Assembly (NCBI GenBank): GCA_039738615.1
Contig: JBCLLP010000001.1
Location: 3,573 to 67,572, forward strand
Direction of reading: 5' to 3'
DNA from: Candidatus Saccharimonadia bacterium
GTDB lineage: Bacteria > Patescibacteriota > Saccharimonadia > CAILAD01 > BJGX01
DNA: 64,000 nt
In this document: positions 52,664 through 55,057 of the stretch, in pieces
How the letters are laid out: every line of letters begins with the position of its first letter
How positions within the stretch are numbered: the first letter of the stretch is position 1
Notes under the pieces: model-generated
The model's database searches: none
What the model was told of the DNA's origin: nothing
What the model saw: the letters and a program-made list of their open reading frames with translations, nothing else
Translations under genes and position numbers: made by a program

Positions 52664-55057
52664 CTAGGTTATTTTGCTAGCTAGTAGCGGGTATAGCATG
52701 CGGAGTTTATTTTTATCGGCGCTGGTAAGGCTCCCGAGGTCGAGGCTGTCACCGATGAAGTTAGGTAGGGCTAGACCCTCGGCGCTGGTGAGGCCCCCGA
52801 GGTCGAGGTCGCCACCGATGGAGTTAGGTAGGGTTAGGCCCTCGGCGCTGGTGAGGCCCCTGAGGTAGAGGTCGCCACCGATGGAGTTAGGTAGGGTTAG
52901 GCCCTCGGCGCTGGTGAGACTGCTGAGATAGAGGTCGCCACCGATGGAGTTAGGTAGGGTTAGGCCCTCGGCGCTGGTGAGGCTCCTGAGGAAGAGGTCG
53001 CCACCGATGATGTTAGGTAGGGTTAGGCCCTCGGCGCTGGTGAGGCTATTGAGGAAGAGGTCGCCAACAATGGAGTTAGGTAGGGTTAGGCCCTCAGCGC
53101 TAGTGAGGCTCCCGAGGTAGAGGCCGCCACCGATGGAGTTAGGTAGGGTTAGACCCTCGACGCTGGTGAGGCCCCCGAGGTAGAGGCCGCCACCGATGGA
53201 GTTAGGTAGGGTTAGACCCTCGACGCTGGTGAGGCTGTTGAGGTAGAGGTCGCCAACAATGGAGTTAGGTAGGGTTAGGCCCTCGGCGCTGGTGAGGCTC
53301 CTGAGGTAGAGGCCGCCACCGATGGAGTTAGGTAGGGTTAGGCCCTCGGCGCTGGTGAGGCTGTCAAGGTCGAGGCTACCACCGATGAAGTTAGGTAGGG
53401 TTAGGCCCTCGGCGCTGGTGAGGCTGTTAAGGTCGAGGCTGTCACCGGTGGAGTTAGGTAGGGTTAGACCCTCGGCGCTGGTGAGGCTGTCAAGGTTGAG
53501 GCCGCCACCGATGGAGTTAGGTAGGGTTAGGCCCTTGGCGCTGGTGAGGGTGTTGAGGTCGAGGTTGCCATGATGGTAGAGTATGCCACCACTTAAGGCC
53601 CCTTCTGTGGTGATGCTTATTTTAGCTTCATCTATATCCAGTATGAGAGACAAATCAGCCTTATCATTTCTATAATCAAGTATCTGCTCTATTCTGAGGT
53701 CTCGCCCATAGCCAAGGCTAAGAATTTTATCATCTATTTCATAAATAAATCTTAGCTCTTCAGGGCTTAGTTTGTAATCGAGGTTACTATAGCTTAAAAA
53801 TTCAGCGGTCATATCATCATACTGGGCACCAAGCTTTACTTCTATCTCAGAAACTAGCTTCATATCCTTAATCGCTTGTTTGTATTCTTCAGCATTAGGA
53901 AATTCTTCACTATCTTCGAGCTTGGTACTCAATACTGGGTCAATATAAGAGTCTAGGTGCTGGCCGTGTTCAATTCCTCTAATCTCAGCTATTTCCCCTT
54001 GCTCCATGCGTATGGCTATCCGTGGTATGTTTGCCTCGCCTGTTTCATCTAGTGAATAATAGACATAAAAATCCCCGCCATCTAGCTGACCTTGGGCTGT
54101 ACTGATAGCACCCGCCGTACACCATTCCAAGACATGGTTATGTAGGCTATCATATAGTGTCTGGGCATCACTACCCTGCTTATAGCAAACCCACTCACCT
54201 CTCGTTTCTTTGAGTCTTTCACGGGACATTGAAGGAGTTTCGGATAGAAATTGGGCATATATTGTAGCAAAGTTTTTATTGCTTAAAAGTGCATTGTATT
54301 TTTCGTCAGTAAGTATAGTCGAGGTATTTGATATTGTTCTGCCACCCTTTGGCAGCCCCTCTTGCTCTAGCCTATGGCTCATAGCAGCGATTGTCTGGGC
54401 AAGTGCCATAGGATTAAGTATCGGGTATGATGCTATGGTAGTTACGTCGCGGGTTGCGAATTTAACTATCGGGGGGCTACCTTCTTTTTCTTCTTTTTTG
54501 ATTTTACCCATTGTAGTAATAGCCATAAAAGCCCAATACCGCGCCCACATAGGGTACCCTGCCGCATCAGCATCCCCGCTAGTTAAATAATCTACCCATC
54601 TATCTAGGCTGGCTTCTTGGGCAGCTATTATCTCATTGATTTTTGCTTGCTTAAACTCTTCATCAGGTGTGATATTACCATGCCCCATCTCCCTGGCTTG
54701 TCGGACTTCAGCTACAAAGGCATAATCTGGCACTTCATCGGGCTTGATAACAAACAGTTTGTGGTAGCTTGCTTTAATGCGTTCTAGCACCCTGGAATGA
54801 GCCTCCTGGAGTTCGGGACTGGCTCCCCTGGCCTGGTGAGTGCGTTGTAATACTTCAAGCCAATTAGATATTCGTAGGGCTGGATTTGTATTTGTCTCTA
54901 AGCCCTCTGCTTTTTCTCTTCTAGCCTGCTCGTACTCTACTGGGTCCGATAACTGAAGTGCAGAGTTATTAGCATGTAATAATCTAGCGCCAGCCAGCTC
55001 CTCCTTGCTAGGGCTAGGGGTGTCTTGTGGGGTTTGATCTGGAAACTGCTCTGGCAT
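52664..55057 (-). CDS. Leucine-rich-repeat protein (BspA-like 21-residue LRRs, 13 copies) with a ~500-aa N-terminal domain of unknown function
   Basis: The C-terminal 13 tandem repeats follow the consensus LTSAEGLTLPNSIGGDLYLxS. There is no obvious signal peptide. The N-terminal domain has no motif I recognise. Confidence 0.65.
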   Translation of the reverse strand: MPEQFPDQTPQDTPSPSKEELAGARLLHANNSALQLSDPVEYEQARREKAEGLETNTNPALRISNWLEVLQRTHQARGASPELQEAHSRVLERIKASYHKLFVIKPDEVPDYAFVAEVRQAREMGHGNITPDEEFKQAKINEIIAAQEASLDRWVDYLTSGDADAAGYPMWARYWAFMAITTMGKIKKEEKEGSPPIVKFATRDVTTIASYPILNPMALAQTIAAMSHRLEQEGLPKGGRTISNTSTILTDEKYNALLSNKNFATIYAQFLSETPSMSRERLKETRGEWVCYKQGSDAQTLYDSLHNHVLEWCTAGAISTAQGQLDGGDFYVYYSLDETGEANIPRIAIRMEQGEIAEIRGIEHGQHLDSYIDPVLSTKLEDSEEFPNAEEYKQAIKDMKLVSEIEVKLGAQYDDMTAEFLSYSNLDYKLSPEELRFIYEIDDKILSLGYGRDLRIEQILDYRNDKADLSLILDIDEAKISITTEGALSGGILYHHGNLDLNTLTSAKGLTLPNSIGGGLNLDSLTSAEGLTLPNSTGDSLDLNSLTSAEGLTLPNFIGGSLDLDSLTSAEGLTLPNSIGGGLYLRSLTSAEGLTLPNSIVGDLYLNSLTSVEGLTLPNSIGGGLYLGGLTSVEGLTLPNSIGGGLYLGSLTSAEGLTLPNSIVGDLFLNSLTSAEGLTLPNIIGGDLFLRSLTSAEGLTLPNSIGGDLYLSSLTSAEGLTLPNSIGGDLYLRGLTSAEGLTLPNSIGGDLDLGGLTSAEGLALPNFIGDSLDLGSLTSADKNKLRMLYPLLASKIT
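52700..53540. repeat. About 13 tandem copies of a 63-bp in-frame coding repeat with very high inter-copy identity
   Basis: Periodicity is visible directly in the DNA (ggccctcggcgctggtgagg... recurring every 63 nt). It corresponds to the 21-aa LRR units. Confidence 0.85.

Follow-up and report, generated by a model that had tools for sequence, protein, structure and literature searches.

The gene at 52664..55057 on the minus strand of a 64,000-nucleotide (nt) stretch of a Candidatus Saccharimonadia bacterium genome (contig JBCLLP010000001.1; hereafter the window, meaning the whole stretch analyzed) ends in a tandem array of 63-bp coding units, which raises the questions of what the array encodes, how it changes, and whether it belongs to a surface protein. 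The sequence-only reading of the window described it as part of a hypervariable, slippage-prone surface protein with BspA-type leucine-rich repeats (LRRs). The results presented here indicate that the array is probably a fast-evolving recognition module and not a demonstrated surface adhesin. The account that we consider fairly probable is that it forms the variable recognition module of a modular protein, which evolves by recombination between units and by substitutions on one face, and that it was expanded or homogenized recently in the window lineage. The mechanism would join a constant N-terminal domain (weakly PcfJ-like) to a variable, ligand-binding LRR-like solenoid.

Tandem Repeats Finder (TRF) reports one tandem array at 52716..53564 (period 63, 13.5 copies, 89% matches, 0% indels, score 1222), the sole strong tandem repeat in the 64-kb window, and all of its units are exactly 63 bp long. 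The array makes up the C-terminal third of a 797-amino-acid (aa) protein, corresponding to the 3' third of the open reading frame (ORF) at 52664..55057. The mean pairwise nucleotide identity among the 13 units is 88% (range, 76 to 98%). TRF and in-frame reading therefore bear out the 13 tandem coding units proposed earlier, for which "near-identical" was somewhat overstated, and the consensus peptide given for them, LTSAEGLTLPNSIGGDLYLxS, is correct. The invariant 33-nt half of the unit has 13 matches with at most 3 mismatches, versus 0 expected by chance, and none elsewhere in the window. The minus strand is the coding strand, as revealed by hundreds of homologs and by conserved codons that differ mainly at synonymous third positions (GGC/GGT, ATC/ATT, and CTC/CTT). 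The plus-strand ORFs translate to periodic antisense peptides wholly inside the array, in agreement with the earlier description of two of them as antisense artefacts. A protein identical to the one encoded by this gene is present in NCBI, on a 74-kb contig (P0001), and the next best database match is 63% identical. The gene and its parts are as follows.

52664..55057, minus strand: whole gene (maximal ORF), encoding a 797-aa modular protein with an N-terminal family domain, 13 LRR-like units, and a C-terminal cap helix
53638..54998, minus strand: conserved N-terminal family domain, aa ~20 to 473, with a helical N-part and an alpha/beta core, delimited by homology across all family types
53948..54205, minus strand: most conserved core, aa ~285 to 370, a candidate active or binding site suggested by invariant alignment columns
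53549..53637, minus strand: junction and N-terminal cap, aa ~474 to 503, with a degenerate half-unit (…SGGILYHHGNLDLNT), placed by the end of homology, the 13.5 copies of TRF, and the model strands
52730..53548, minus strand: 13 tandem units of 63 bp (21 aa) each, aa 504 to 776, consensus LTSAEGLTLPNSIGGxLxLxS, from TRF, frame reading, and alignment
52667..52729, minus strand: degenerate 14th unit forming the C-terminal cap helix LTSADKNKLRMLYPLLASKIT, from the translation and the helices at model residues 343 to 359
52664..52666, minus strand: stop codon of the repeat gene
52674..53573, plus strand: three antisense ORFs (52674..52868, 52944..53120, and 53322..53573), artefacts of the G+C-rich repeat with periodic translations
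55137..55166, minus strand: promoter-like site TTAACT-18-CATAAT in the 140-bp gap upstream of the gene, a consensus match only

AlphaFold2, given an alignment of 28 homologs, models aa 437 to 797 as a regular solenoid (pLDDT, 91.4; pTM, 0.85) in which each unit contributes two 2-residue strands, at positions 12-13 and 17-18, and is free of helices. A helix caps the C-terminal end, and the strands extend into the junction region at aa ~474 to 503. A Foldseek search of the PDB with this model ranked YopM first (4ow2_A; E = 5e-3, probability 1.00, 21% identity), and further matches were Leptospira LRRs, YopM 1g9u, and the LRR domains of IpaH7.8, SspH1, and IpaH2.5. LRRs of the short "bacterial" class prevailed in this list. 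The unit contains LxL and LxLP ladders, and its length of 21 aa fits the LRR range of 20 to 30 residues. The model and the Foldseek matches support the LRR-like solenoid expected by the sequence-only reading. However, no Pfam LRR model, including LRR_5, matched the whole protein at E ≤ 0.1 or the repeat region and four homologs at E ≤ 10, and the family profile reached the Leptospira LRR protein LIC12759 only at E = 0.11. The ladder-asparagine position is occupied by leucine, and no Asn or Cys is conserved in the unit, which was aligned to the bacterial-type consensus by eye. Since a Pfam LRR match and an Asn/Cys ladder are both lacking, the repeat was named an LRR-like solenoid of an unannotated subtype and not a BspA-type LRR. 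Annotation of the whole protein and of family members with Pfam, NCBIfam, PHROGs, PADLOC, and PDB sequences yielded nothing beyond short matches within the repeats to Glutaredoxin2_C and threonine synthase, which were rejected as spurious.

The LRRs of YopM, IpaH, SspH1, and SlrP resemble the window repeat in having 20- to 22-residue units, a convex side without helices, and an LxLP…LxL hydrophobic ladder. Effectors of the YopM/IpaH class, which are injected proteins and not adhesins, are two-part proteins without a Sec signal that recognize their substrates through the LRR. However, the window unit differs from this class in matching no LRR profile, in having an invariant TSAEG loop and a GG turn, and in lacking Asn/Cys. 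In addition, the conserved domain of the window protein precedes the LRR-like part, an order opposite to that in IpaH, and this partner domain has no fold match to the NEL ligase of IpaH by Foldseek against the PDB. The organism of the window is a bacterium of the candidate phyla radiation (CPR) that is not known to have a type III secretion system.

Variation within the unit is strongly position specific. Codons 1 to 11 (LTSAEGLTLPN) are nearly invariant, synonymous sites included, with 0 to 2 mismatches per copy in the first 33 nt, and nearly all variation lies in the last 30 nt, where mostly nonsynonymous changes cluster at codons 12, 14 to 16, 18, 20, and 21. The dN/dS ratio among the 13 units (Nei-Gojobori) is 0.31 at codons 1 to 11 and about 2.2 at codons 16, 18, and 20, the latter being suggestive because such paralogous comparisons are few and non-independent. 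The same pattern holds across the family, in which 884 units from 202 proteins have the consensus L-T-S-A-E-G-L-x-L-P-x-x-[IV]-G-G-x-L-x-L-x-x, with entropy maxima (3.2 to 3.35 bits) at positions 16, 18, and 20, the x's of x-L-x-L-x, and entropy near zero at L1, G6, L7, P10, L17, and L19. Positions of high family-wide entropy also tend to be those that vary among the window units (Spearman, 0.79; p = 2e-5). Between the close orthologs P0007 and P0008, residue differences amount to 13.9% in the repeats versus 5.5% in the N-terminal domain (N-domain), a difference of ~2.5-fold (Fisher p = 2e-4), and omega is 0.63 at the variable positions versus 0.23 at the conserved repeat positions and in the N-domain. 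In the proposed arrangement, positions 1 to 11 together with L/I13, L17, and L19 would build the invariant scaffold of each 21-residue turn, and positions 12, 14 to 16, 18, 20, and 21, a strand-turn-strand stretch, would form one continuous variable face along the solenoid. Amino acid substitutions would concentrate on this face, which may bind a ligand.

The array also evolves as a whole. Identity is 88% within the window array versus 67 to 72% between genomes, with an N-domain DNA identity of ~64%, and the window array has its own codon signature (CTC/GAG/CCT/AAC, versus CTG/GAA/CCC/ACT in a relative), which indicates concerted evolution or a recent expansion in the window lineage, as proposed in the sequence-only reading. 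The array of L001 is just 69% self-identical, and the window array is unusually homogeneous. The units at the edges (1 to 3 and 13) are the most divergent and the central units are the most alike, as expected under unequal exchange. In-frame changes of copy number between relatives, which were also anticipated, are evident from the range of 2 to 18 units and from the orthologs P0008 and P0010, which have 11 versus 2 units with 86.6% identical N-domains, ~89% identical flanks, and a shared downstream gene. P0007 and P0008, the N-domains of which are 94.5% identical, both have 11 units in conserved order. P0121 and P0005, belonging to the same 90% cluster, are nucleotide identical except for an in-register 378-nt block of 6 units, and the junction of this block lies in a 111-nt exact duplication (units 1 and 2 being equal to units 7 and 8). 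These two alleles come from a 59%-identical relative and were found at L005:684-2813 and L006:821-3328 (JGI samples 3300009161 and 3300027770). Unequal homologous recombination or gene conversion among the 63-bp units, together with the substitutions on the variable face, would change the length and the surface of the solenoid.

Classical contingency loci, to which the sequence-only reading assigned the array, likewise carry repetitive DNA within a gene, and in both cases the copy number can change without destroying the gene. However, contingency loci have perfect repeats of 1 to 9 bp, whereas the window units are 63 bp long and 12% diverged on average. Change in the window would occur by recombination and not by slippage, with no on/off switching of the frame and no measured hypermutability. 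Units of this length that are 88% alike, with a longest exact repeat of 62 nt, are a poor substrate for slipped-strand mispairing, and a change of length cannot toggle expression. In addition, close orthologs kept their copy number and unit order and have an omega below 1. The "slippage-prone contingency element" is therefore not supported. "Hypervariable" holds in spirit, since diversity-generating retroelements (DGRs), module swaps, and copy-number changes target this end of the protein in the family, but the BspA, surface, slippage, and contingency specifics are not supported.

The location of the protein bears on the explanation that it is a BspA-type adhesin on the cell surface, the contingency repeats of which would often change copy number by slippage and thereby vary adhesion to the host. 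Judged from the ORF start and hydropathy, neither a signal peptide nor a transmembrane segment or anchor is present in the window protein or in its close relatives. The maximal ORF starts with MPEQFPDQTPQDTPSPSKEE…, a hydrophilic N-terminus of low confidence in the model; the highest 19-residue hydropathy is 1.1, at an internal peak, and a C-terminal anchor is absent. The "surface protein" of the earlier description is thus not supported, nor is the "BspA-type" assignment, given the failure of the Pfam LRR models and the YopM/IpaH-like structural neighbors. BspA/TpLRR surface proteins (LRR_5, PF13306) share with the window protein tandem leucine-rich units, an occurrence in host-associated bacteria, and a varying unit number, but the window repeat fails the LRR_5 hidden Markov model and differs in unit length and consensus, and the protein lacks a signal peptide and a surface anchor. 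An adhesin would be consistent with the LRR-like solenoid, the wide copy-number differences among relatives, and the nearly identical allele pair differing by 6 units, and oral Saccharibacteria without pilins have been proposed to use LRR proteins as adhesins (PMC7739484). In addition, about 15 of 262 distant members have a convincing Sec signal peptide directly before the conserved "GAQFLH…" start, which reveals that this architecture is exported somewhere. These members include P0172, P0173, P0183, P0192, P0196, P0205, P0221, P0243, P0258, and P0259, among others (loci L089 and L090), and some have 5 to 9 LRR-like units. Their neighbors (IMPDH, GMP synthase, LigB, subtilase, and PLD) are unlike those of a reduced CPR genome. 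The Sec signals indicate that extracellular action is possible for some relatives, and nothing indicates it for the window protein. An adhesin with contingency repeats is therefore an unlikely description of this gene. As a recognition module, the array would instead belong to a protein that presumably acts in the cytoplasm or exits the cell by a non-Sec route.

The array is attached to a conserved N-terminal domain, which the sequence-only reading missed together with the alternative C-terminal modules of its relatives, including DGR targets. A word-indexed search retrieved 377 homologs of the window protein, and a profile search of 1.84 billion representatives indicated a family of at least 2,363 clusters at 50% identity; the best 150 of these clusters, all strong matches, included no bridge to an annotated family. 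A genome scan revealed the family in Saccharibacteria and in at least 15 other classes of Patescibacteria. The core motif, G287-x-W289 … W312-C313-T-A … G328-D-F-Y-V-Y333-Y334-S335 … P345-R346 … R360-G361 … Q366, has invariant columns in alignments of 66 and 24 sequences. The window protein, with homology over aa ~20 to 475 and all invariant core residues, is a full-length member of this WC-core family. Gene neighborhood gave no clue to function: apart from DGR components, no neighbor occurs in more than 4 of 82 loci, and rpmB, M50, and PaaX adjoin the gene only as local synteny among Saccharibacteria. Typical signal-less members with 28 to 46% G+C were also found in metagenome-assembled genomes (MAGs) labeled Gammaproteobacteria or Bacilli (binchicken and others; L028, L036, L037, L040, L080, L084, and L087), of which the Bacilli-labeled members carry 12 to 16 LRR-like units. 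These labels are probably wrong and the genomes CPR.

The N-terminal 503 aa had no match in Pfam, NCBIfam, PHROGs, PADLOC, or PDB sequences. The N-domain model (pLDDT, 87.4; pTM, 0.74), which combines a helical part with an alpha/beta core, matched nothing in the PDB by Foldseek. However, in the viral structure library of Foldseek, ranks 1 to 4 were all "PcfJ-like protein" (E = 5.6e-3 to 7e-2), which agrees with a resemblance of the core motif to that of PcfJ. PcfJ-like proteins (PF14284), which occur in conjugative plasmids and phages, share with the family a Cys, about 12 residues, a Gly, a three-strand meander, and "RG…Q/N", but PcfJ has His-Cys where the WC-core family has Trp-Cys. PF14284 was not matched by any of 66 family members in Pfam searches, and hhalign against PcfJ of pCF10 gave probabilities of 2% and 0.5%, the second alignment being in the expected register yet not significant; a protein search for PcfJ relatives retrieved close Enterococcus ones only, too few for a good profile. 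On the predicted structures, the N-domain appears weakly PcfJ-like, and the literature on PcfJ itself reports no known function.

Homology of the window protein to all family types stops at aa 473 to 494 and is followed by 185 to 250 aa of alternative modules. Among about 260 members, ~98 have arrays of 21-aa units (2 to 18 units; median, 6; the period of 21 is family wide), at the end of which the tail motif LTxxEKxxLRxxYPxL is kept throughout the family; ~56 have a non-repeat domain ending in …W…FVFRLRK; a few have an unrelated 27/28-aa repeat (LDHNQIAQQLIEAGxGxAVAxNLxKFxG); and the remainder have other or partial forms. P0003 (63% identical; locus L003) shares the neighborhood of the window gene, comprising an AI-2E transporter, an MBL-fold protein, the gene itself, rpmB (L28), an M50 peptidase, and a PaaX-like gene, and bears the 27/28-aa repeat in place of the LRR-like array, which reveals that positional orthologs differ in module type. 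Judged from these sequences, the C-terminal module appears to be interchangeable among family members. The 21-aa repeat and its tail were also found in hundreds of shorter CPR proteins, either "short forms" (WC core and repeats) or proteins with unrelated hydrophilic N-termini. Because the unit and tail make up an LRR subtype that is missed by profile libraries, such proteins are annotated as "hypothetical." An 811-kb contig of Candidatus Campbellbacteria contains at least 4 clustered paralogs (P0273, P0297, P0298, and P0342; IPJ70_01075/01090/01120/01125) with a hydrophilic N-terminus of ~130 aa, 6 to 8 units of 21 aa, and the conserved tail. Here the repeat module seems to have expanded locally, away from the main family.

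Relatives of the window gene diversify the same end of the protein by means of DGRs. ORF clustering across the 82 loci identified a reverse transcriptase (RT) as the sole recurrent neighbor (10 loci), together with a small Avd-like protein that recurs too, and Pfam confirmed both (RVT_1, E = 1e-21; bAvd, E = 3e-12). At five loci (L026, L035, L044, L066, and L086), the variable region (VR) is the last 131 to 143 nt of the family gene and matches a template repeat (TR) about 450 nt downstream at 81 to 89% identity, and the mismatches between VR and TR fall at template adenines in 15/15, 15/15, 18/19, 18/21, and 25/26 cases. Such adenine-specific mismatches are the signature of DGRs and, read from the sequences, indicate hypermutation of the equivalent C-terminal domain in these relatives. 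The DGR targets are of the "…FVFRLRK" type. Cassettes comprising target, TR, bAvd, and RT adjoin family members in several CPR classes (L026, L035, L041, L044, L066, L070, L077, and L086), and that of L044 is laid out as follows.

3989-5926: target
6229-6371: TR
6385-6789, minus strand: bAvd
6682-7764: RT

Wu et al. listed, in 2018, DGR targets of CPR bacteria in which a "PcfJ-like" motif precedes the VR (category g; PMC5758913), and a DGR clade restricted to Patescibacteria was described by Roux et al. in 2021 (PMC8144416). The window N-domain is 37 to 42% identical over aa ~20 to 490 to the targets in L026, L044, and L066, the C-terminal module starts at the same position as in the window protein, and both presumably act as variable ligand-binding ends. 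The window array thus occupies the position that relatives hypermutate by DGR. However, the window gene lacks an RT, an Avd, and a template repeat, and its product ends in a tandem LRR-like array, which recombination and substitution have diversified, in place of an adenine-mutagenized domain. A DGR acting on the window array itself was considered and rejected, since the window has neither an RT nor a template copy, which indicates that the array is not DGR driven, and since the variation lacks an adenine pattern.

These data also bear on the explanation that the array is a structural spacer or scaffold without a specific ligand, subject to relaxed constraint and neutral unequal crossing-over, with the function residing wholly in the N-domain. 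An omega below 1 between orthologs even at the variable positions (0.63), a copy number that ranges from 2 to 18 with no obvious optimum, and the replacement of the C-terminus by unrelated repeats would all fit a spacer. However, the variation is strongly position specific, with the same pattern in 202 proteins, and falls on the alternating positions of x-L-x-L-x, as an exposed strand face would predict, and not on all non-core residues. Strong purifying selection acts on the scaffold half of the unit (dN/dS, 0.2 to 0.3), and relatives devote a DGR (RT, Avd, and TR) to the equivalent domain, which is hard to reconcile with a ligand-less spacer. A spacer is therefore an improbable function for the array. 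Reading the array as a recognition module, we infer that its diversification may be adaptive, for example, in tracking a host or phage protein.

Several points weigh against that reading. The solenoid is a predicted structure, the Foldseek E values are marginal (5e-3 to 0.8; TM, 0.44), no Pfam LRR model recognizes the repeat, and the leucine at the ladder-asparagine position departs from the LRR consensus. The within-array dN/dS above 1 is only suggestive, and the ortholog omega below 1 is compatible with relaxed constraint. The databases contain no close strain of the window organism. The 6-unit difference between P0005 and P0121 reflects either a real unequal exchange or an assembly collapse, possibly a re-assembly of related samples. 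In addition, tblastn revealed nothing RT-like in the window (best E = 0.5), and the unit does not occur outside the array, so that the analogy with DGRs is one of homology and position only. The least probable explanation, that the array is real but that its copy number and unit order are artefacts of short-read metagenome assembly (collapse or mis-joining), would fit a MAG contig as the source and the 6-unit block at a 111-nt duplication in otherwise identical genes, as a collapse in a de Bruijn graph would give, but every unit of the window array is distinguishable, reads and k-mers longer than its longest exact repeat of 62 nt would resolve it uniquely, the ORF is intact with a proper cap and tail, and relatives independently show 2 to 18 units, so the array was probably assembled correctly.

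The gene links a recognizable tandem LRR-like array to a very large CPR-specific family with DGR-hypermutated members, and the functions of CPR/Patescibacteria proteins and of their many DGR targets are largely unknown. If the modules are interchangeable specificity determinants, the family would be a promising candidate for the recognition of hosts or phages by episymbiotic bacteria, and the LRR forms, which are stable, soluble looking, and repeat encoded, offer a tractable route to the ligand. A more tentative proposal, which we regard as possible but doubtful, is that one conserved (PcfJ-like) domain with interchangeable hypervariable modules, diversified by three routes at one junction (DGRs, recombining LRR-like arrays, and helical repeats), is a central, rapidly co-evolving interface with hosts or phages. 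If this is true, the family could be, for example, the sensor or effector of a conflict system, and the LRR forms would be a DGR-independent "natural experiment" for finding the ligand. The antiphage genes ldgA and ddgA, identified by functional selection, are reported to be almost exclusive to Patescibacteria and to have no known homology (doi 10.1016/j.chom.2025.07.005, PMC12366544). LRR arrays with varying unit number are familiar, and earlier work briefly mentions a PcfJ-like motif in DGR targets of CPR bacteria. No prior description was found in the literature of the 21-aa LRR-like subtype with its conserved tail, of the size and CPR-wide spread of the family, or of LRR arrays, helical repeats, and DGR-mutagenized domains as equivalents at one junction.

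The base composition of the repeats differs from that of the rest of the gene. The G+C content is 0.62 in the repeat region (52730..53548) versus 0.44 in 53549..55057 (window, 0.42), and the G+C content at third codon positions (GC3) is 0.74 versus 0.39. The closest Saccharibacteria relatives (L001, L002, L003, L005, L006, L009, and L016) differ in the same direction, with a repeat GC3 of 0.58 to 0.67 versus about 0.41 to 0.49, including the ortholog with the unrelated 28-aa repeat. GC3-rich repeats as a family-wide trait were rejected (11 of 20 loci; Wilcoxon p = 0.25), as the trait holds only in the Saccharibacteria clade of the window. Possible causes are a founder-unit effect, GC-biased gene conversion, or a module from a GC-richer donor.

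Elsewhere in the window, a partial 16S rRNA gene (1..1177, minus strand) runs off the window start. The tmRNA at 29077..29583 (minus strand) is 507 nt long by ARAGORN versus 391 nt for the Rfam match, and the RNase P RNA match at 45472..45955 (minus strand) spans 484 nt versus 367 model positions, which implies sizeable insertions. An 86-aa ORF at 50450..50710 (minus strand) overlaps tRNA-Pro(GGG) at 50502..50577 on the opposite (plus) strand and is almost certainly not a gene. The gene at 47684..50137 (minus strand) encodes a ClpB-like double AAA+ protein (AAA_2 and ClpB_D2-small) with a hydrophobic start that looks membrane spanning (…NILVLSWVLIIAGLVLVFVV…GIGLLGVMFALWARW…) and with no N-terminal Clp domain among the 25 Pfam families listed of 34. 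Judged from its sequence, it would be an unusual membrane-anchored Clp-type ATPase.

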